A stretch of 32,000 nt of DNA from Synechocystis sp. PCC 6803 substr. PCC-P. Lineage in GTDB: Bacteria; Cyanobacteriota; Cyanobacteriia; Cyanobacteriales; Microcystaceae. The stretch is from positions 3,000,001 through 3,032,000 of the forward strand of contig NC_017039.1 in assembly GCF_000284455.1 (NCBI RefSeq), given 5' to 3'. Of this stretch, positions 20,360 through 30,050 are shown piece after piece. A program made the position numbers and the translations under genes. The notes under the pieces are model-generated. The model searched no databases and had not been told where the DNA came from. It worked only from the letters and a program-made list of their open reading frames with translations. The number at the start of each line of letters is the position of its first letter. Position 1 is the stretch's first letter.

Positions 20360-22099
20360 CTAAAAGCCCAAATCCTCCCTGGCGATCGCCGCTTCGGCCA
20401 ATACTTCAGCATCGGTCTTGTTTGGCCAATCTTGGCAACCAATTTCACTGTAAAACTGCTGGTCGTAGGGCCGGGTCCGCACCACCACCGGCATGGGTAC
20501 TGCATGGCCTAACACTAAAGCCTGTTGTTTGGAATCTAGTTTGGCCAGCACAGAGCGTAAATTTTGCCCCCCCGCCACCCCGGTAAAAATGGCTTCAATG
20601 TCCTTTTCGTCGTTGAGTAGACAGGTAATACGGGTGCCAATTTGGGACATAACTTCATTGTCAATGCCCGATGGCCGCTGGTCCACCACCAACAAAGTAA
20701 CAAAGTATTTCCGCATTTCCCTGGCAATGGTGCCAAAAATAGTCTGGTGGACAATGGCAGAATCCAAAAAGCGGTGGGCTTCTTCAATGGTAATTACCAA
20801 TTGCCTGGGGCGATCGCCAACGTGTTTAGTTTGGAGAAATTTTTCTGCTTTTTTAACGTAAATGCTATGGATACGCCTGGTGATCATATTGGTGGCCAGC
20901 ATATAGGAAAGCAAATTAGACTGGGAGCCAAATTCAATTACCACATGTTTGCCTGCTTCTAAACATTGCAACAGTTGGTCGATGTAATTATGGGTGCTGA
21001 CTTGTTTGAGATATTTTAAATTTTCTAGTCGTTTTAACTTGCGTTGCAAAGACATGATGGAGCCGGGGTGCCCTTGTTTTTCTTCACAAAAAACCTTAAT
21101 TTCTTCATTGCTCATCACCAGTAAACGGGAAATCCAACTAGAGCCAAACTCAGAAAATAAAATATTGGCATTGTCCAACGCCGCCTCTGACAAACCTAAC
21201 TCAAAACCAACTAAACGAATATCTTCAATTTCAATTTGATCAAAACTTAAATAGAGTTCCTGGGCTCCCCTCACTCCCCGTCGCTTGGTGGACTCCGCAT
21301 CGAGGGTAAAAATTTCCACTTCCCCCGGAAACAATTGCCGCAGACCCTTAACAGTGGAAACGGTTTTGCCTTCCCTCATCGCCTCCCAACCATACTCCGA
21401 GTGCATGTCAAACATCAAATTGACCGCCGCCTGTTTGTGGATAATGCCAGAAATTAATAATCTGGTTAAAAAAGATTTCCCTGTACCCGATTTGCCAAAA
21501 ACTCCATTGCTCCGTTCCACAAAACGGTCTAAATCTAAACACACTGGCACCGCCATATCCAACGGTTCCCCAATGGCAAAATTGCGTCGAAACGGATCAT
21601 CTTCCCAACCAAATACCAAACGAAAATCCCTTTCACTGGCTTCAAAAACCTGGCTGAAATGGGCCGGAATAGTTTTCACCGGCAGTAATTCCACGTCTGC
21701 ATTACTATTAGCTTGATAGGAAGCCAAACCATTGCCATTACTCTGGCGATCGCCTTGACCGTTCATCTGTTCAACTGAACTTTCCCCATAACTCGAGTCC
21801 TTTTCTGACTCCGTTAACATTAACATGGGTGCTAATTCTAACGTGCCGTAGGTGCCACTGCCGGCCAATACATCAATTAAAAAATCATCGTTAATGTTAG
21901 GGGGATTAGCCAAAATCCTTGGATTTGCCGTTCCTAAAGAAACATCGGTGAGCAAACAAAAAAAGCGCGATCGCCTACCCTGAATAACTAAAAATTTCCC
22001 CACCCGCATTTCTTCCACGGAAACATCCGCATGGAGACGCACTTCCAAGCCTTTACTGAGGGAACCTTGGGTAACGGAGCCGAGGGCATGGTCTGACAT
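20360..22099 (-). CDS. HerA/FtsK-like (DUF87) P-loop ATPase
   Basis: 579 aa with an N-terminal HAS-barrel-like segment. It has Walker A 'GVFGKSGTGKSFLTRLL', Walker B 'LVITIEEAHRFL' and a 'VVDQRPS' arginine-finger block typical of HerA/VirB4/FtsK-clade ATPases. Confidence 0.8.
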   Translation of the reverse strand: MSDHALGSVTQGSLSKGLEVRLHADVSVEEMRVGKFLVIQGRRSRFFCLLTDVSLGTANPRILANPPNINDDFLIDVLAGSGTYGTLELAPMLMLTESEKDSSYGESSVEQMNGQGDRQSNGNGLASYQANSNADVELLPVKTIPAHFSQVFEASERDFRLVFGWEDDPFRRNFAIGEPLDMAVPVCLDLDRFVERSNGVFGKSGTGKSFLTRLLISGIIHKQAAVNLMFDMHSEYGWEAMREGKTVSTVKGLRQLFPGEVEIFTLDAESTKRRGVRGAQELYLSFDQIEIEDIRLVGFELGLSEAALDNANILFSEFGSSWISRLLVMSNEEIKVFCEEKQGHPGSIMSLQRKLKRLENLKYLKQVSTHNYIDQLLQCLEAGKHVVIEFGSQSNLLSYMLATNMITRRIHSIYVKKAEKFLQTKHVGDRPRQLVITIEEAHRFLDSAIVHQTIFGTIAREMRKYFVTLLVVDQRPSGIDNEVMSQIGTRITCLLNDEKDIEAIFTGVAGGQNLRSVLAKLDSKQQALVLGHAVPMPVVVRTRPYDQQFYSEIGCQDWPNKTDAEVLAEAAIAREDLGF

Positions 22100-22335
22100 A
22101 AATTCTGGGGCGGGTCAAAAATGGGGACAACGGTGGCGATCGGTTAATATTCAAACCTTGTGGTTAGTACTATTTTGTCATCCTACCACCTTAACCTCAT
22201 CTATCTTGCGTAAGTCCTGACGAACTGATTATTGATTTACAGAGCTTTCGTCTCTTCATTGCTATGTAAATTTTTGCTAATCTTGAGATGCCATTGCTTC
22301 TATCATAGTCATTTTTCATAAACTAGACCTGAGAA

Positions 22336-23574
22336 TTATTCATTCGGCTCTTGAGTTGCACCACATTCTTTACAATGGGGCAAATGTTGATAAGTAAGGG
22401 CATGACAGCTCACGCATTCAACATATTGATAATAACCACAGTGGGGACAATAGGAATCCTGGGGACGAATTCGCTTTGCACACTTTACACAACTGGATTT
22501 TTGAAATCGTTTAGCTGCTTGACTTTTAGAATTAAAAACAACCCTTTGGAAAAATTTGATAACTCCAAATCCCACTAAAGGAATAAGTAGAATATATAGG
22601 TAACTAATAGCAAAAATTAATCCACCAAAGACAGCTTGAACAAAATTTAAAATGAGGTCAAAAATAAGACCAAATTGTAGAAATTCAAAGACCTTTAAAA
22701 TTAGCGGTATAAGAAAAATAACTAGCAGGTGCCAACTAATCAAAGCTACTAATCCATAGCCTTTTTTCACTGCAACGCTATGAACCCAAAGAGCAGTTAA
22801 AATTAGGGGGGTTAAAAAGAGAGCCTGGAAAAAAAAACGAATAGTGGGATACCAAAATACTGCATTGATATAACTCTGATTTAATTCCTCCCAGATATCT
22901 TTTTGATTAATAAATTTAAGGAAATTAATGCTTTCTGGCTTTGCCAAAATTTGCTGTTCTAAGCTAGCAATTTCTTGTTCAAGGCTAGCGATTTTAGCAA
23001 TATTTTGATTTAATTGTTGCTTGGCTTTTTCTGGGGGAGTTTGATTAATTGAATTTTCTTTGCCTTGACCAGCAATTTTTTCTAATAGTGTCGAGTCATA
23101 TTGGGAACGAATGGTATTATTAGATTCTTCAAGCTCATTAATTTGAGCTACGGTCTGGTTAATTTTGATAATAAAATTTTGATTGTCAGTGGTTTGAATT
23201 TTATCGTGATATTGGGCGTAGGTTAAACAAACTTGGCTAACTTGACCAAGATGGCCTCTTTCTGATTCTCTGAAACTCTTCTCTAAACTGTATTGATCAA
23301 TAGGGTCAGTGGCAATAGCTTCGCGAATAATTTGAAGGTTTTTGTCAGAAATGGTTTGGCTTTGATAATTTTGCCAAGAAGCATGGCAAGGATAAGCTAA
23401 ATTAGGGGCAAGATACCATTGGCCAATATCTTCTATTCCATTAAAAACATTGATAAGGATAAAAATATCAATAAGAATGATTACGATTAAGCTAACCTTG
23501 TTGAGAGGTTCATTCTTAACTGTTCTGGATTTATTCCAGAATTGATCAAATAGCCGACGAATGGAATTAAACAT
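22336..23574 (-). CDS. Orphan membrane protein with coiled-coil ectodomain and C-terminal double zinc ribbon
   Basis: 412 aa with an ATG start. It has an N-terminal TM helix, a Q/N/E-rich coiled coil with the repeat 'IASLEQEIASLEQQI' and about 4 C-terminal TM helices. The tail is 'CVKCAKRI..CPHCGYY..CVSCHAL..CKECG'. Sampled lines give about 30% GC, well below its neighbours. Confidence 0.7.
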   Translation of the reverse strand: MFNSIRRLFDQFWNKSRTVKNEPLNKVSLIVIILIDIFILINVFNGIEDIGQWYLAPNLAYPCHASWQNYQSQTISDKNLQIIREAIATDPIDQYSLEKSFRESERGHLGQVSQVCLTYAQYHDKIQTTDNQNFIIKINQTVAQINELEESNNTIRSQYDSTLLEKIAGQGKENSINQTPPEKAKQQLNQNIAKIASLEQEIASLEQQILAKPESINFLKFINQKDIWEELNQSYINAVFWYPTIRFFFQALFLTPLILTALWVHSVAVKKGYGLVALISWHLLVIFLIPLILKVFEFLQFGLIFDLILNFVQAVFGGLIFAISYLYILLIPLVGFGVIKFFQRVVFNSKSQAAKRFQKSSCVKCAKRIRPQDSYCPHCGYYQYVECVSCHALTYQHLPHCKECGATQEPNE

Positions 23575-24063: not shown

Positions 24064-25485
24064 ATGGAGCACAAGCCAAACGAGTTTGTGAAACGAGCCA
24101 TGAAAATCGATATCATTATTGTCTACATTCAGCGATATCGAAAGGGACATGAGGTTCATTTTGTCCCGCCGCTGACTGGTATCCATCTTGCTGCCCTGAC
24201 CCCGGCAAAACATACTGTTCGAGTTATTCACCAACAGGTTGAAACCGTAAATCTAGACAGCGAAGCTGATGTAATTGTCCTCTCCTTCTTCAGTGGTTTT
24301 GCCCCGGAAGCATATCGCTTAGCAACGGAATATCGAAAACGGGGCAAGATAACAATCGCGGGTGGTCCTCATGTAACTTTTGCCCCAGAGGAAGCTCTGA
24401 GATTTGTGGATAGTATTGTCATCGGCGAAGGGGAGTCGGTCTGGGAGCAAATTTTCCAAGATATCGAACAGAACACTCTTCAGCAGCGATATATTGGTGA
24501 AGCAATTCCCCTCACAAATATCCCCACTCCCCGGTACGACCTGTTACCTCCGCAGTACTTCATTCGACGGGTTGTTCAAGCCACTAGAGGATGTCCATTT
24601 ACCTGCTCATTCTGCACTGTACCCGTTCTCAATCCCGGCTTTCGTACTCGCCCTGTCGAGGCGGTGCTGAACGACATCCGATACAACAAATTCAAATGGT
24701 GGTGGCAACGAAAAACTGTCTGGTTTTGGGATGATAATTTGACGGCAAATAGACCCTATATCAAAGAACTTCTGCGCCAGATGATACCCCTGCGAAAGTG
24801 GTGGTTGACCCAAGCAAGTATGGATATTACCAAGGATGACGAGCTGTTAGATTTAATGCGAGACTCTGGTTGCATCGGAATTTTTTTCGGGATTGAGTCA
24901 TTTGGCCAGGAATCCTTGGAGGATGCGGGAAAACGCCAAAACAAAGTCGCAGAATATCAAGGCAAAATCAAAAAATTGCATGACCGTGGCATTGGCGTGA
25001 TGGCTGGTTTTATTTCCGGTTTGGATGGAGATACCCCAGAAAGCATCCGGGATATGGCCAACCAACTGGAGGAAATTGGTGTTGATGTGCCATTTTTGAG
25101 CATTCTTACTCCTTTTAAAGGCACGCGTTCATACTCAAAGATGATGGATACGGATCGGTTGCGTTCGGATTTGGGGTGGGAGTTTTACAATGGCTATAAT
25201 GTCACATTCGTGCCCAGTAAAATGACCCCTGCAGAGCTTTTAAAAGCCCACCGAGATTTGTGGAGATCAGCCTTTAGCCTGCAAGCAATCTTTCGTCGGA
25301 TTGGTAGATCCTTATTTACTTTGCGCGGGGGGGCAATGATGATGTGTAGCATCATGAATCTCTTCTACGGGCTAAAAGCTCTCACAAATAATGAACCGAT
25401 TAGCTTTGAAGGAACGGATGAATATAAATCAATTCGGGAAACTATCGATTTGATTCCATACAGTCGCCAGAATTCACTAAGTTGA
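24064..25485 (+). CDS. B12-binding-domain radical SAM protein (class B)
   Basis: 473 aa. The N-terminal B12-binding Rossmann-like region is '[36 protein letters not shown]', and the radical SAM cluster is '[10 protein letters not shown]'. An alternative start exists at ATG 24100 ('MKIDIIIV'). Confidence 0.85.
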
Positions 25486-25646
25486 TGAGCGCCAACATCT
25501 TTGCTGGTTACTAATGGAAAGCAAAGTCCACCCCGCTAAAACTTAGTTTTTTGTGGGGTCATTGGTCATGGCGATCGCCAAAAACTCTACTATGGGTCAA
25601 CCCTTAACTGTTTTGATTAGCGACAAACCGATCAACCAGTTCAACA

Positions 25647-25949
25647 TCAATAAATTGTCTTGATCAGCTCAGGGGCCAGCAGAATCCCTCCCAAAATAGA
25701 AGATGTTAATTGTCCTTGACCTCCTCCTTGAGTGTCAATTTTTGTTCGTTTTATCTATTTTTTTAGGGCACTTTTCGTCAAACCTATTTCCCTTGCTATT
25801 TGGCTTATAGGCTTTCCTGAATCTTCGACAATTTTTACTGTCTCCGATTTCTGTTCATCTGTAAATGTTCGTCTTCGTTTTTGGCTCATTTGGACATTCT
25901 CCTTGATTTTCGACTCTTTGGATTTGTCCACTTTTTTCAGTCAAGTTCA
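25647..25949 (-). mobile_element. IS3-family insertion-sequence remnant (left inverted repeat plus decayed orfA HTH segment)
   Basis: The minus strand reads 'MSQKRRRTFTDEQKSETVKIVEDSGKPISQIAREIGLTKSALKK*' over 25889-25755. This is the classic IS3/IS911 OrfA helix-turn-helix N-terminus. A TAG sits where the family has Trp, and family-like sequence ('IKRTKIDTQGGGQGQLTSS') continues after it. A TGAACTTGACTGAAAAAAGTGGACA terminus (ending at 25949) resembles IS3-family IRL. No orfB is present. Confidence 0.65.
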
Positions 25950-26153
25950 GTCCTCGTTAAGGGTAGGGAAATGAATTTGTGAAGAAAGAATTCCTTGACT
26001 AGGGCTAAAAATAGGTGGCGTTTGATAGACCGTTAATTGCGATAAAACTTGAATAACAGGTTGAATTGCACTCATTGTGATATTCCTCGTCTTTGGCAGA
26101 ACTGTAGAGTTATCGGCCCATGGGGGAAAAGTTATTCAATGTACCTCAACAAA

Positions 26154-26271
26154 ATTAATTTACTGGGCTGAAATCCTTACCCTATCAAAGCTTTGGACAT
26201 TAATATTTCACTATTAATTTACTGGGCTGAAATCCTTACCCTATCAAAGCTTTGGACATTAATATTTCACT
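26154..26271. repeat. Perfect 59-bp tandem duplication (2 units)
   Basis: ATTAATTTACTGGGCTGAAATCCTTACCCTATCAAAGCTTTGGACATTAATATTTCACT occurs at 26154-26212 and is repeated exactly at 26213-26271. Each unit contains the 10-bp palindrome CAAAGCTTTG. Confidence 0.95.
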
Positions 26272-26328
26272 TATCTAGGGCTCATTCAATGGGAGAGAAA
26301 AAATATTTTACTGATTTTGCATAACTTT

Positions 26329-27309
26329 TTAGCCCCGCCCCCGATAACTATTTGACGGTGGATCAAATCCTGGACCCGAGGCGATCGCCTGTTGGAAGGA
26401 AAGTTGCAGATCGGGGATAGTTACCCCCTGTCGTCCTGCAAATAACATCGCTGCTAGTTCTTGGCCATAGGAGGCTTCACTGTGGCCAGAGTAAACAAAC
26501 AGATCAAAACCTGGCGATCGGCGCAGAGTACGACTAAGTTGGCCATAGTCTGGCTGTAATAGTTCGGTAACTTGCACCCTCAAGCCCCTATTTTTAGTCA
26601 AATTAGCCAATATCTGGCGATCGGGTTCGAGGTCAATGCCATCACTGTTGCCAATCAGATGCAAAATTCGCAGTTCAGGGCATAGGTAACGGTGGAGCTT
26701 GGCGGTGAAATTAGTGGGATGGGTAACGGAAGTTGGGGCAGGAGTGAACGAGTATTGACAGGTATTAACCGCACAATGGATTTTTGGTGAGGCTGATTGC
26801 AGTAGGGGCCATTCCTGCCAGGGTAATTTAGCTAAAATCGCCGCTGTTTCTGGGCTGGTTTGATACAGAGATTGACCTATCTGCAAAATCAACAAAGTTT
26901 CCCCATCGGACTGGGAAAGACAGCGCAGTATTTCCTTTTCTAAATTTTGCCAAGCGGGTAGGGAAGAACTCAACCATTGCACCATGGCTTGGCGGAGGAG
27001 CTTTCTTTCCGTTCCCTGGCCTTGATACTGGTAACTGGTGGCAACGGCTTGGGTGCTAATGATCCTAATGCCCCGACGGCGATGGGCTTGCCCAGGGCGA
27101 GGACTGGTGATTTCCAAAGCCCAATCTTGGTACAGCTCCGCTAAGGGGGAAGTTATGGGGGGTAAAGTGCCGTAGAAATCCCTTTGCACCGTGGTGACCG
27201 AGGAACCATCTATCCGTTCCACATCCAACGCCACCGTAAAACCAGACTGAAAATCACCATTAATGACCTTGAGCAGAAGAAATTGCATTGCCATCAGATT
27301 TTTTTGCAC
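26329..27309 (-). CDS. CHAT-like (caspase-family) protein, apparently truncated before the catalytic Cys block
   Basis: 326 aa. The N-terminal 'LLLKVINGDFQSGFTVALDV' module and the C-terminal 'LRILHLIGNSDGIDLE...FDLFVYSGHSE...TIPDLQLSFQQAIASG' resemble the His-block half of cyanobacterial CHAT domains. The ORF ends where the Cys block would follow. The track start is GTG (27309), 1 nt after the upstream stop codon. ATG alternatives lie 5 and 7 codons downstream. Confidence 0.55.
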   Translation of the reverse strand: MQKNLMAMQFLLLKVINGDFQSGFTVALDVERIDGSSVTTVQRDFYGTLPPITSPLAELYQDWALEITSPRPGQAHRRRGIRIISTQAVATSYQYQGQGTERKLLRQAMVQWLSSSLPAWQNLEKEILRCLSQSDGETLLILQIGQSLYQTSPETAAILAKLPWQEWPLLQSASPKIHCAVNTCQYSFTPAPTSVTHPTNFTAKLHRYLCPELRILHLIGNSDGIDLEPDRQILANLTKNRGLRVQVTELLQPDYGQLSRTLRRSPGFDLFVYSGHSEASYGQELAAMLFAGRQGVTIPDLQLSFQQAIASGPGFDPPSNSYRGRG

Positions 27310-27310
27310 C

Positions 27311-28483
27311 CTAAAGATGAATATCTTCCGTTACAGCTAATTCTCCCAGGGATACCCGAATGCGAAAATCACTGCCGGGGTCAATCTCTAGGCTCATTTT
27401 GAGGAGATTTTTTCCCCCTTGTTCTTCCTCTCCAACCCCAATACTGTCAATTAACTGGTCATCGGTGGTTAACAATGCCAATGCTAATCCTGCCGGTAAA
27501 GTTTGTGTTGATTGCAAAGGTTGCAACGTAATCAAACCGGCAATGGTATGGTCACCCCTAGGCATCAAAGAAACGGTTAACGTCAACGGGATTTGCCCTA
27601 AAGCCAGGTCATGGGCAATGGTTTTGGTAACACTATGCACCGCCTGGGGATGTTTGGCATCAATGCGGGCTAGGGTGCCAGCGGCTAACCAGCGGGTATC
27701 TTCATTGTTCGTGCCATCAATGATTTCCACCAATTTGGCGATCGCCTGGGGTTGATCATTTTCGGTGGCTAATTCCCCCAGAGTAATAATTAATCTTTGC
27801 TTGGTAGCCTCATCCTTGGCTCCCTGAAATTTGTCGATAATGCGCTCCACTGTGCCCAAGCTACGGACAGGAATTAACTGGGGTACCCATTGCTCCGTTC
27901 CCAACTGCCAAGTGGTAGTGGTAACCCGTTCCACCCAAGTTTGAATCACGTCTGTCACCCGATTAACGGCATTTTGCACTACTTCCACTGGGGCGAGAAC
28001 CATTGAAGCTTGTTCCGCAGTGGCAATAACCCGGAATAGTCCTTCTATGGGTTGTAACTGTTGTTTAGGCACTATTTCCGCAGTAAAAGATTCTAAAAAA
28101 CCGAATATTTCCCCTTGGCGCAGGTCTTCACTAATTTCCACCACCGCATAGCCTAATCTGTCCTGCCAACTTTCCGCCCCAAAATAAATTTCCTCTTCTT
28201 GGTGACCAATGCCCCGACATTCCAAACGACCGAGATTAGGTAGGTAAAGATCAGCCACTGTTTCCCCTAAATGGATTGGTGGTTGACGGCTATAACTTTC
28301 CCCCTCGTCATAATCAATGCCGTAGATCTCCAACCAATGGGCGATCGCCCTAACGGCCAAAAGGTTTTTAATGAGCCGTTGAAGTTTTTCTCCCTGGCAA
28401 CCAGATTGGAGGGCAATGGTTTTCACCCATTGATGATCCGCTGAAGTTAGGGGAATTTTCAAATTATTATCGATGGCAACCAT
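27311..28483 (-). CDS. DUF1822-like protein
   Basis: 390 aa. The N-terminus 'LKNLLAVRAIAHWLEIYGIDYD...VADLYLPNLGRLECRGI...WQDRLGYAVVEISEDLRQGEIFGF' matches my recollection of the conserved DUF1822 N-terminal pattern (cyanobacteria-rich family). The assignment was not verified by search. Confidence 0.65.
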   Translation of the reverse strand: MVAIDNNLKIPLTSADHQWVKTIALQSGCQGEKLQRLIKNLLAVRAIAHWLEIYGIDYDEGESYSRQPPIHLGETVADLYLPNLGRLECRGIGHQEEEIYFGAESWQDRLGYAVVEISEDLRQGEIFGFLESFTAEIVPKQQLQPIEGLFRVIATAEQASMVLAPVEVVQNAVNRVTDVIQTWVERVTTTTWQLGTEQWVPQLIPVRSLGTVERIIDKFQGAKDEATKQRLIITLGELATENDQPQAIAKLVEIIDGTNNEDTRWLAAGTLARIDAKHPQAVHSVTKTIAHDLALGQIPLTLTVSLMPRGDHTIAGLITLQPLQSTQTLPAGLALALLTTDDQLIDSIGVGEEEQGGKNLLKMSLEIDPGSDFRIRVSLGELAVTEDIHL

Positions 28484-28552
28484 AAATATTTCCTAAAAGT
28501 AATTAATAGCGAATACAAATACTACAAAAGTGATTTAATCTTCTACAATTAG

Positions 28553-29656
28553 TTATCGGCTCTGGCTCAAATTTTTATGCACAAATTGCAAAATATGGGG
28601 CAGTAGCTGAAATTCGTAAAACCGCTCCAGTTCCCCCGGCTCCACTCCTAACGATTGCGCCACTTGGGTTAGTCCCTGCCTCGGCTTTCGGATGGTCAAC
28701 AGTAGCTCCTGCAACAGCCTTTGCCCTGTAATCCCTGGTTTTTGAGCCAAGCGAAGTTCCCTTAAAGTTGACTCCGTTTCTATCCATTCCTGCAATTGTT
28801 GTTCAAATTGGTTTTGCCTCAATTCTTTCTTTCCCAACAGTCCCCGCAGATGCTCACAGGGATTAATGGGGGTATCGGGTTGGATAAAGTCATAATTGCT
28901 TTCCATAAAGGCGATTAACCTACCGCGGCACTGACGCTCGTAGAAACTGCTCAAAGTGGCGATCGCCACCCCATATTCTTTTGCCAACTGATTCCACTCC
29001 ACTTCCTCGATAAAACGCTTTTGCAGTAATAATTGCGCTGTTATTGTTGGCTGGTTTTTAACCGTCACCCCAACTAATTCCTCCTCTAATTGCAACCAGT
29101 CTTCTATGCCCCGACGCATAATGTCAGCGTCTTGTCCGTAGGAAGGGGAGGTTATCATGGCCAGCAGATCTTCCCGATCATCCTCGGATGTACTGGATTG
29201 GACTTGTTGCCGTTGTTGATATTGCTTTTCCCGTTGGGTCTTGAACTCATTTTTGAGCCGGAAGTTTAACCAAGTAGCTACCTGGGCTTGCTGGGCGTTG
29301 TAGTCCCGATAACGACGATAGAAATATTCCAGGGTCTTCAACCACGCTTCAGCGTAGGCATCCTGGTACTGCTCTTCGTAATTACGCCATAGTTTTTCCG
29401 ATGCTTCCAGTATTCCCATAGCCTGGGCGAGTATTTCCCTTTCACACAGGGTTTTTTGGATAGGGTCAAGGCCATCCCCGGACAATTTTTTCGCCTGTTC
29501 AATGAGGAGTTGGAGTTGCAGGTTTACATCATCCCCAGCAATGCGGACTACTTCGCTGAATATTTGTCTCAGAATTTGCTTCCGCTTAGCACTAACAGGA
29601 GATAACTGTCCCAACCTCTGGCGATAATAGTCGAGGGAACAATGATCTTTTTCCAT
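28553..29656 (-). CDS. Sigma-70/ECF-like protein with two region-4-like HTH modules (tentative)
   Basis: 367 aa with an ATG start. '[16 protein letters not shown]' resembles sigma region 2.4. There are two HTH repeats: '[30 protein letters not shown]' and '[30 protein letters not shown]'. The ORF is solid, but the functional call is weak. Confidence 0.45.
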
Positions 29657-29746: not shown

Positions 29747-29887
29747 TGCTATACGACATCCGATACAACAAATTCAAGTGGTGGTGGCAACGAAAGACCG
29801 TCTGGTTCTGGGATGATAATCTAACCGCAAATAGAAACTATATCAAAGAACTTCTACGCCAGATGATATCTCTGTGAAAGTGGTGGT
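29747..29887 (+). pseudogene. 141-nt relic of a paralog of the B12-binding radical SAM gene
   Basis: It aligns without gaps to 24666-24806, with about 15 mismatches by eye (about 89% identity). It encodes '[40 protein letters not shown]', against '[44 protein letters not shown]' in the intact gene. CGA(Arg) has become TGA. There is no homology on either side of the fragment. Confidence 0.85.
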
Positions 29888-30050
29888 TTATCATGCTCCC
29901 TGTTATACTACAGAGGAAGATATTACTTAATCTTTACTTTATTTACTAAAGTGATCTTTTAGGCATTTAAGTCTAAAAGGTCGTTGTCAAAAGTTTCCTT
30001 AGTCAGGGATAGTAAAGGCTCTGAGAGGAAAGATTCAGATAGTTCTGGAG

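Follow-up and report, generated by a model that had tools for sequence, protein, structure and literature searches.

A predicted sigma factor, a DUF1822 protein and the remnant of a CHAT receptor protease form a degenerate three-gene module in Synechocystis sp. PCC 6803

An architecture that joins an EACC2-caspase protein to a sigma factor of the extracytoplasmic-function (ECF) type and a DUF1822 protein has been described computationally by Kaur, Iyer, Burroughs and Aravind (eLife, 2021; PMC8195603). The EACC2-caspase proteins combine a constant N-terminal alpha+beta domain, EACC2, and a caspase domain with a variable C-terminus, CHASE2 with transmembrane (TM) helices included, and most are accompanied by the sigma factor and by DUF1822, which the authors call TPR-like. 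They proposed a stimulus-induced activation of the autopeptidase with a transcriptional output. Here, we describe three adjacent genes of Synechocystis sp. PCC 6803 (substr. PCC-P) that lie within a 32,000-nucleotide stretch of the chromosome (NC_017039.1, positions 3,000,001 to 3,032,000; the window in what follows). Exact protein matches identify them as sll0280, sll0281 and sll0282, and PCC 6803-type assemblies, among them the Bacillus subtilis BEST7613 chimera, carry an identical locus. The gene set, order and architecture are those of the EACC2-caspase system. The window copy is, however, a remnant and not a complete member: the catalytic Cys, TM helix and whole variable sensor region of its receptor are gone, its sigma factor is enlarged by an N-terminal extension and a duplicated sigma-4-like domain, and its DUF1822 protein carries a HEAT-like insertion.

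Protease-controlled ECF-like sigma factors are also known from CRISPR systems. In type III-E the TPR-CHAT protease Csx29 cleaves Csx30, a protein that blocks DNA binding by the ECF-like CASP-sigma (PMC10028731), and in type III-B CalpL cleaves the anti-sigma factor CalpT, which is bound to the ECF-like CalpS. The three genes of the window are as follows.

28553-29656, minus strand: sll0280 (ORF1), 367 residues, predicted divergent ECF-like sigma factor
27311-28483, minus strand: sll0281 (ORF2), 390 residues, DUF1822 protein
26329-27309, minus strand: sll0282 (ORF3), 326 residues from a GTG start, truncated remnant of a receptor-type CHAT protease

The PCC 6803 locus is a degenerate copy of a module that has been described computationally. 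Our reading, to which we would give a probability of roughly 60%, is that it is the decayed copy of a module conserved across cyanobacteria, the intact form of which would work by signal-activated proteolysis. The identity of the three genes and the truncation of sll0282 are the firmest parts of the analysis and we hold them with great confidence. An earlier sequence-only reading had regarded the locus as a candidate for an unstudied signalling or abortive-infection-type module. The architecture proved to have been described already (PMC8195603), while our literature search found no experimental work on a sigma/DUF1822/CHAT module, and it is in this second sense that the word 'unstudied' still applies.

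Calling of open reading frames (ORFs) returned the three minus-strand genes with the same limits as in that reading and with the same gap of 69 nucleotides between sll0280 and sll0281. Translational coupling of sll0281 and sll0282 had also been suggested, from a GTG codon one nucleotide beyond the sll0281 stop (the junction reads CTT TAG G GTG). GTG 27309 is simply the first start encountered mechanically. The orthologues without exception start at the position corresponding to 'MAMQF', and the RefSeq model has 321 residues from an ATG at 27294, 16 nucleotides past the sll0281 stop, so that the protein probably starts at this ATG and the true intergenic gap is probably 16 nucleotides. The tight packing of the genes stands; strict stop/start coupling is not established, with ATG 27294 being likelier than the GTG.

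The distribution of the module was surveyed through DUF1822, using one peptide pattern and one genome per species. This gave at least 486 loci, the best 80 of which were analysed by ORF calling and by searches with profiles built for the sigma-like and N-terminal-module/CHAT families. (A contig scan with a single DUF1822 sequence returned no relative; it was the alignment-based rerun that found these loci.) Apart from one unclassified metagenome-assembled genome, the best 80 are all cyanobacterial. An ECF-like ORF lies directly upstream of DUF1822 in 66 loci and overlaps an over-extended ORF call in three others, giving 69 of the 76 that could be assessed. A gene with the N-terminal module and CHAT is the immediate downstream neighbour in 67 loci and is found no more than 5 kb away in four further ones (71 of 77 assessable), and both neighbours are strictly adjacent to DUF1822 in 53 of 68 loci. 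The published gene set, order and architecture are thereby reproduced on 80 loci, and the co-localization of the three families, on which the sequence-only reading depended, is borne out. The sigma and DUF1822 genes overlap or abut, as is typical of sigma/anti-sigma pairs.

The module is often carried on plasmids and often present in several copies per genome. A tblastn search of plasmids with sll0281 retrieved 18 cyanobacterial records. In the annotated neighbourhoods, from Planktothrix, Nostoc and Trichormus, a sigma-70 family protein or a hypothetical protein of about 215-250 residues is followed by DUF1822 and then by a CHAT, CHASE2 or CHAT-plus-periplasmic-binding protein, and in many cases DUF928 and another CHAT or haemagglutinin-like gene come next. 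The CHAT-CHASE2 gene is followed by a DUF928 gene in 18 of 58 genome loci (also at L003 12786-16695, L006 10317-14090 and L010 9042-10438), and beyond DUF928 there is either a large TPR-CHAT protein or a protein of S-layer/haemagglutinin-like type, the latter accompanied by a ShlB/FhaC transporter. DUF928 and the genes beyond it may constitute an extended module or a regulon. There is no DUF928 gene in the window.

Individual loci depart from the common plan. A Ser/Thr protein kinase gene lies between DUF1822 and the CHAT gene at L018 6050-7453, and on the short contig L019 (1620-3026) such a gene directly follows DUF1822, with no CHAT gene seen. Downstream of DUF1822 there is an M48 metallopeptidase in Pseudanabaena (L005 8589-10520) and a chagasin-family (I42) cysteine-protease inhibitor in Scytonematopsis (L081 6210-6536). 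The kinase, M48 peptidase and chagasin variants suggest further regulatory layers. In Synechocystis FACHB-383 (L002 12856-16638) a dense toxin-antitoxin/AbiEii cluster lies directly downstream of the intact module, with BrnT/CopG, PhdYeFM, AbiEii, MazE and ParE/YoeB as members; the surroundings of the module in this strain may therefore be variable or those of a defence island.

The orthologues show what an intact third gene encodes. In syntenic loci its product has 806 residues in Synechocystis FACHB-383 and 800 in Picosynechococcus PCC 7003, and a profile search recovered further full-length relatives of 804-827 residues. The Pfam CHAT profile (PF12770) matches the close full-length orthologues with 27-29 bits against a cut-off of 24, the match (profile positions ~137-272 of 289) taking in both catalytic blocks, His and Cys, and CHASE2 is recognized in the full-length orthologues with an E-value of ~1e-45. 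All 37 dereplicated, diverse downstream proteins match CHAT at E <= 1e-3. Gly270, His271, Asn314 and Cys316 do not vary among 37 homologues drawn, after dereplication, from other cyanobacteria. An invariant His-Cys dyad is shared with separase, SAVED-CHAT and Craspase within PF12770, and a Foldseek search with a model of the full-length orthologue P0171 (80% identical to sll0282) points in the same direction, with SAVED-CHAT (8tl0_C) at E 2.9e-8, separases at ~1e-6 and caspase-4, -11 and -3 at probabilities of 0.99-1.00. The Synechocystis subfamily scores weakly and the window fragment is not recognized at all: sll0282 itself has no Pfam or NCBIfam match, CHAT included. The CHAT identity proposed for this gene is therefore recovered by profile in every full-length orthologue, though not in the truncated protein. 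Since Pfam and NCBIfam are silent on the CHAT and sigma proteins of the window, both assignments needed orthologues and family profiles.

The remaining parts of the receptor differ in how far they vary. A profile of the N-terminal ~205 residues matches 72 ORFs in the 80 loci. The sensors of the 37 downstream proteins, by contrast with this constant part, are of several types: 20 have CHASE2, 16 a periplasmic-binding-protein domain (Peripla_BP_6 or ANF_receptor) and three TPR, with CHASE2 or a periplasmic-binding-protein domain present in 36 of the 37. By these profile matches, the N-terminal module is constant across loci and the sensor is variable. Residues 1-200 of P0171 were predicted by AlphaFold2 (AF2) to have mixed beta/alpha secondary structure, and the constant alpha+beta domain is probably the EACC2 domain of Kaur et al. 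(PMC8195603). TM-like segments at ~413-437 and ~712-807 of P0171 flank CHASE2, so the N-terminal module is predicted to be cytoplasmic and CHASE2 extracytoplasmic. The intact receptor is thus predicted to consist of the N-terminal domain, the CHAT protease, one TM helix, the CHASE2 sensor and C-terminal TM helices.

Against this background the state of sll0282 can be described. It covers positions 1-309 of the 407-position N-terminal-module profile (E 5e-146), which means that the constant N-terminal domain is retained, together with CHAT through the His block. The translation contains 'FDLFVYSGHSE', as had been noted from the sequence, and then leaves the orthologues after '...SFQQAIA', 7-8 residues ahead of the 'FNSCAS' Cys block, in agreement with the earlier suggestion that the ORF stops where the Cys block should begin. 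The features concerned are the following.

26482-26484, minus strand: codon of the catalytic-dyad His ('YSGHSE'), retained
26329-26379, minus strand: non-homologous tail SGPGFDPPSNSYRGRG and stop, in place of the Cys block, TM helix, CHASE2 and C-terminal TM helices

An intact protein of 810 residues, WP_162329118.1 from Synechocystis sp. CACIAM 05, which falls in the same 90% cluster as sll0282, is 95% identical to it over residues 1-307 and shows no similarity beyond. At the DNA level, homology to Synechocystis strain B12 (96.8% over 4.35 kb) stops at window position 26380. We rejected the idea that 326 residues is the native length, as every orthologue, the CACIAM 05 protein among them, has 800-827 residues; the orthologues carry the invariant Cys and do not end where sll0282 ends. 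A relocation of the C-terminal half within the window was likewise rejected, since a tblastn search with residues 306-810 of P0171 found no significant trace of the missing ~500 residues anywhere in the window. The choice of search mattered here: a word-index homology search with the truncated protein gave a single match of 255 residues, and it was an alignment search that found the full-length relatives.

Because the CACIAM 05 copy is intact, the loss of the receptor is lineage-specific. The gene of strain B12 is itself damaged, being split into three ORFs of 46, 312 and 436 residues (L001 10363-12768) by two single-nucleotide deletions relative to PCC 6803 near codons 44-49 and a further frameshift after the CHAT domain; these frameshifts may represent independent decay or an assembly error.

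The remnant retains the His and lacks the Cys, the TM helix and CHASE2, and the suggestion that this copy is inactivated is upheld to that extent. Lacking the Cys, the membrane anchor and the sensor, the sll0282 product should be able neither to cut nor to sense. It might nevertheless still bind the sigma factor or DUF1822 and serve as a decoy or as a regulator without protease activity. All PCC 6803-type assemblies (130 contigs) keep the frame, which runs open over 326 codons, and the ratio of non-synonymous to synonymous substitution rates (dN/dS) of the retained part, which like those of the other two genes was computed against strain B12, is 0.15. This value resembles those of the two intact genes and is not the ~1 expected of an old pseudogene, which means that the gene was truncated recently or that what is left of it retains some function. 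It is possible, however, that most of the counted substitutions predate a recent truncation, and the B12 gene used for the comparison is in three pieces. The break also interrupts the caspase fold, separating the strand of the His from that of the Cys, and the half-domain left behind is unlikely to fold; the adjoining spacer has served as a neutral integration site with no phenotype reported. We therefore consider a live role for the remnant rather improbable and continue with sll0282 as the decayed part of the module.

The DNA around the breakpoint carries several marks, listed here.

26380-26389, no strand: HIP1-type palindrome GGCGATCGCC, exactly at the deletion or rearrangement breakpoint
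26154-26271: perfect tandem duplication, 59 nucleotides x 2.0, within the degraded spacer that follows sll0282
25755-25931, minus strand: fragment of an IS3-family transposase OrfA, 58 residues, helix-turn-helix (HTH) only
29747-29888, plus strand: fragment copy of the interior of slr0309, 142 nucleotides, 89% identical to 24665-24806

The PCC 6803 lineage lost everything from 7-8 residues before the Cys onwards, through a deletion or rearrangement that ends at the HIP1 site. A second HIP1-containing stretch at 27724-27761 pairs with the breakpoint HIP1 as a 38-nucleotide imperfect inverted repeat, and HIP1 may have been involved in the rearrangement. Both the tandem duplication (59 nucleotides x 2.0) and the IS3 remnant (HTH_Tnp_1, E 9.8e-7, 29.4 bits against a cut-off of 24.1) that the sequence-only reading placed downstream of the gene are present. 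The spacer between slr0309 and sll0282 (25486-26328) is the scar of the lost receptor half. Chromosomal integrations in PCC 6803 have been directed to this same spacer under the name of a 'putative neutral site' (PMC10939160), and it is solely in this connection that our literature search found sll0280-sll0282 mentioned.

The 142-nucleotide fragment points to an older event. Its two copies are in direct repeat, 5,082 bp apart, and bracket the module; the copy at 24665-24806 lies inside slr0309, a B12-binding radical-SAM gene that is intact. Strain B12 has the same fragment upstream of the sigma gene (L001 7769-7904), so the fragment predates the truncation. It is possible that the repeat dates from an old event in which the module was inserted or rearranged.

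Elsewhere the window holds ordinary housekeeping chromosome: ppk, ppsA, and genes that encode a MinD-like ATPase, a GGDEF-domain protein and a HerA-like ATPase. The last of these is an ATPase of 579 residues with a HAS-barrel and DUF87, followed by a membrane protein of 412 residues that has a coiled coil and, at its C-terminus, double zinc ribbons. The pair (20360-23574, minus strand) adjoins slr0309 and is not linked to the module in the other genomes examined.

We turn now to sll0280, for which a sigma region-2-like stretch and two region-4-like HTH repeats had been read from the sequence. The parts are as described. The two repeats align with each other (BLASTP E 1e-8; second domain of the family profile at an independent E-value of 7.9e-10), and an AF2 model of the protein, with a predicted local distance difference test (pLDDT) score of 79, has an identical pattern of helices and strands in the second repeat.

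Residues 1-~70, minus strand: N-terminal helical extension
29207-29449, minus strand: sigma region-2-like core, ~residues 70-150
28895-29134, minus strand: first sigma-4-like HTH domain, ~residues 175-254
28577-28822, minus strand: second sigma-4-like domain, ~residues 279-360

The region-2-like core is the most conserved block of the family, and across 108 sequences its residues Trp129, Asn131 and Leu134 hardly vary. When the family alignment was used as query in an exhaustive HMMER search, 427 cluster representatives were recovered at E <= 1e-3. Most of these have 200-250 residues and cover profile positions ~70-254, a span that includes the first sigma-4-like domain in nearly all relatives of that length; the C-terminal ~110 residues of sll0280 are a duplicated sigma-4-like domain specific to the Synechocystis-type subfamily. 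Close homologues are restricted to Synechocystis and Picosynechococcus and are all named 'hypothetical'.

The assignment of sll0280 to the sigma factors by profile had a mixed outcome. The protein itself has no sigma-domain match in Pfam or NCBIfam. Among 108 aligned relatives, Sigma70_r2 is matched by 28 (best E 7e-11) and Sigma70_r4_2 by six, and the profile of the 108-sequence family, sll0280 included, matches region 2 of two ECF sigma factors of known structure, Rhodobacter sphaeroides SigE (2q1z_A, E 9.6e-5) and Mycobacterium tuberculosis SigK (4nqw_A, E 1.2e-3). A profile of the close family (12 sequences) retrieved no sigma factor from the Protein Data Bank (PDB). The top Foldseek matches of the AF2 model are ECF sigma factors (SigH, SigE, SigL, SigW, SigK and region 4 of SigR), and all are weak, with E > 1e-3 throughout and the best at E 0.037 and probability 0.90. 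The match to SigR region 4 (5fgm) has a TMt of 0.63 and a root-mean-square deviation of 3.2 over 75 columns, but an E-value of 1.8, and the Foldseek output does not report which residues of the model it covers. The weakness of these E-values is explained by the different arrangement of domains.

These results could also be taken to mean that sll0280 is a multi-HTH transcription regulator that merely resembles sigma regions 2 and 4. The missing Pfam and NCBIfam match, the atypical length with a duplicated HTH domain and the best structural E-value of just 0.037 would all fit. What makes this highly improbable in our view is the family: relatives pass the Sigma70_r2 profile, two ECF sigma factors of solved structure align with the family profile over their sigma-2 helices, NCBI labels several DUF1822-linked relatives as sigma-70 family proteins, and the order of a sigma-2-like domain followed by a sigma-4-like domain is the ECF order. 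Sigma-family membership thus appears to follow from family-level evidence and not from a direct match, and we describe sll0280 as a predicted divergent and enlarged ECF-like sigma factor, comprising the N-terminal extension, the sigma-2-like domain and two sigma-4-like domains.

A Rosetta-stone search among the longer members of the sll0280 family found no fusion of the sigma-like protein to DUF1822 or CHAT; it returned one Death-like match and one Sigma70_r2 match. The former is in P0046, a relative of 334 residues with a weak C-terminal match to Pfam Death (E 3e-6, no single stretch passing alone), and recalls the Death/TRADD-N associations discussed by Kaur et al. (PMC8195603).

The middle gene is the most readily classified. 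The sll0281 protein is a full-length DUF1822 (PF08852; 284 bits against a cut-off of 25, E 2.2e-84, positions 1-369 of 370), as the sequence-only reading had it, and it is predicted to be soluble, there being no TM-like segment. One feature is particular to some versions.

27611-27838, minus strand: HEAT-repeat insertion in sll0281, ~residues 216-291 (HEAT_2, E 6e-5, below the Pfam cut-off)

The HEAT-like stretch is an insertion in four of ten aligned DUF1822 proteins; it is common to the Synechocystis, Picosynechococcus and Planktothrix versions, while most Nostocales versions are without it. The dN/dS of 0.17 for sll0281 and 0.15 for sll0280 indicate that both genes are under purifying selection.

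Taken with the intact relatives, the gene order suggests how the module might operate. The sigma gene comes immediately before the gene of a soluble partner and often overlaps it, the protease lies on the cytoplasmic side of a receptor and the receptor has an extracytoplasmic ligand-binding domain; for these reasons we favour signal-activated proteolysis as the means by which the sigma factor would be controlled. Binding of a ligand to the extracytoplasmic domain would activate the cytoplasmic CHAT protease, which would then cleave DUF1822 or cleave itself. Until such cleavage DUF1822 would act like an anti-sigma factor and keep the sigma factor inactive; once freed, the sigma factor would redirect RNA polymerase. 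In PCC 6803 the sigma/DUF1822 pair would have been orphaned from its trigger, though selection still maintains both genes.

It is the Csx29/Csx30/CASP-sigma and CalpL/CalpT/CalpS precedents that lead us to propose DUF1822 as the sequestering partner and probably the substrate. In both CRISPR systems, as here, a protease is genetically coupled to an ECF-like sigma factor and an intermediary protein. The protease of Csx29 is a CHAT domain, as is that of the receptor, which Foldseek relates to SAVED-CHAT. The triggers would differ: the CRISPR modules respond to RNA-guided Cas7-11 or to cyclic oligoadenylate, whereas here an extracytoplasmic CHASE2 or periplasmic-binding-protein domain would receive the signal, and there is no CRISPR association. 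A second comparison is with the RpoE-RseA-DegS/RseP and SigW-RsiW pathways, in which the sigma gene is likewise directly followed by that of its partner. We infer that proteolysis would similarly turn an extracytoplasmic signal into the release of an ECF-type sigma factor. Unlike in those pathways, the sensor, the membrane span and a cytoplasmic caspase-fold Cys protease are combined in one polypeptide, and the putative anti-sigma factor DUF1822 is soluble, with no TM segment, in place of a transmembrane anti-sigma factor. By analogy, sll0281 is a candidate anti-sigma factor or adaptor and a candidate protease substrate. We hold the proteolytic anti-sigma mechanism as tentative, with odds somewhat short of even. 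More tentative again is the full proposal, in which DUF1822 would represent a new class of soluble anti-sigma factors and the EACC2-CHAT-CHASE2 or periplasmic-binding proteins would be one-component 'receptor caspases', switched on by an extracellular ligand to cut DUF1822 and free the ECF-like sigma factor.

Several results weigh against the reading as a whole. Kaur et al. (PMC8195603) propose autoproteolysis and not the cleavage of DUF1822. A DUF1822 profile found no meaningful relative of solved structure in the PDB, known anti-sigma factors included. The DNA preceding the sigma genes yielded no conserved ECF-type promoter motif: the k-mers enriched in 37 dereplicated upstream regions were AT-rich words only, an alignment of four orthologous upstream regions contained no conserved block, and a scan for the sigma-70 consensus scored no better than expected from shuffled sequence. 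The AF2 model of P0171, built from nine sequences, has a pLDDT of 51 overall and ~70-80 in the N-terminal module, and was used for the fold assignment of that module only. To these must be added, from the sections above, the silence of Pfam, NCBIfam and the close-family profile on sll0280, its weak structural matches and the low dN/dS of the truncated gene.

A different role for DUF1822 would be that of a repeat-type scaffold tethering the sigma factor to the N-terminal domain of the receptor, with activation through autoproteolysis of the receptor as in the proposal of Kaur et al. Their description of DUF1822 as TPR-like and their proposal of autopeptidase activation (PMC8195603) are in keeping with such a role, as is the HEAT-like insertion in the Synechocystis protein, and an N-terminal domain that stays constant beneath variable sensors is what would be expected of a docking surface. 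The known modules that couple a protease to an ECF sigma factor nevertheless use an intermediary protein that is cleaved, and we regard the scaffold as somewhat unlikely, our preference remaining with DUF1822 as the sequestering partner.

The sequence-only reading left the choice between a signalling and an abortive-infection-type module undecided. A counter-invader or programmed-death system, in which CHAT is the death effector or activates one and the sigma factor adds a transcriptional arm, would accord with the place of EACC2-caspase systems in discussions of apoptosis and immunity networks (PMC8195603), with the many plasmid-borne copies, with the occurrence of some copies among toxin-antitoxin and AbiEii genes (for example in FACHB-383) and with the action of CHAT proteases in CRISPR type III defence. 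Yet none of sll0280, sll0281, sll0282 and full-length P0171 has a match in PADLOC-DB 2.0 at E <= 0.01, the constant partner is a sigma factor and not a toxin, and the window copy is embedded in housekeeping chromosome. The CHASE2 or periplasmic-binding-protein domain of 36 of the 37 downstream proteins, moreover, fits sensing of the outside better than sensing of cytoplasmic phage. Since the deleted half of the window receptor, which the sequence alone could not reveal to the earlier reading, consists of the TM helix, the extracytoplasmic CHASE2 and the C-terminal TM helices, signalling is favoured and we think an abortive-infection function unlikely.

Signal-activated proteolysis thus remains our preferred account of a module that is common in cyanobacteria and in which a caspase-fold protease is linked to a dedicated sigma factor through DUF1822. 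PCC 6803 is the best genetic model among the cyanobacteria, and it has the sigma/DUF1822 pair intact and the receptor-protease lost, while the sister strain CACIAM 05 has an intact receptor that is 95% identical to the remnant. Together they give a direct experimental handle on what has so far been described by computation. There is a practical consequence as well: the 'neutral site' used in strain engineering between slr0309 and sll0282 is the scar of the receptor deletion. If our reading is correct, the sigma/DUF1822 pair of PCC 6803 would provide a 'locked-off' background into which the CACIAM 05 receptor could be reintroduced. The logic of protease, anti-sigma factor and ECF sigma factor found in CRISPR type III systems would then extend to ordinary transmembrane sensing, and cyanobacteria at large would possess a transmembrane route distinct from both two-component systems and the site-1/site-2 protease ECF pathways.

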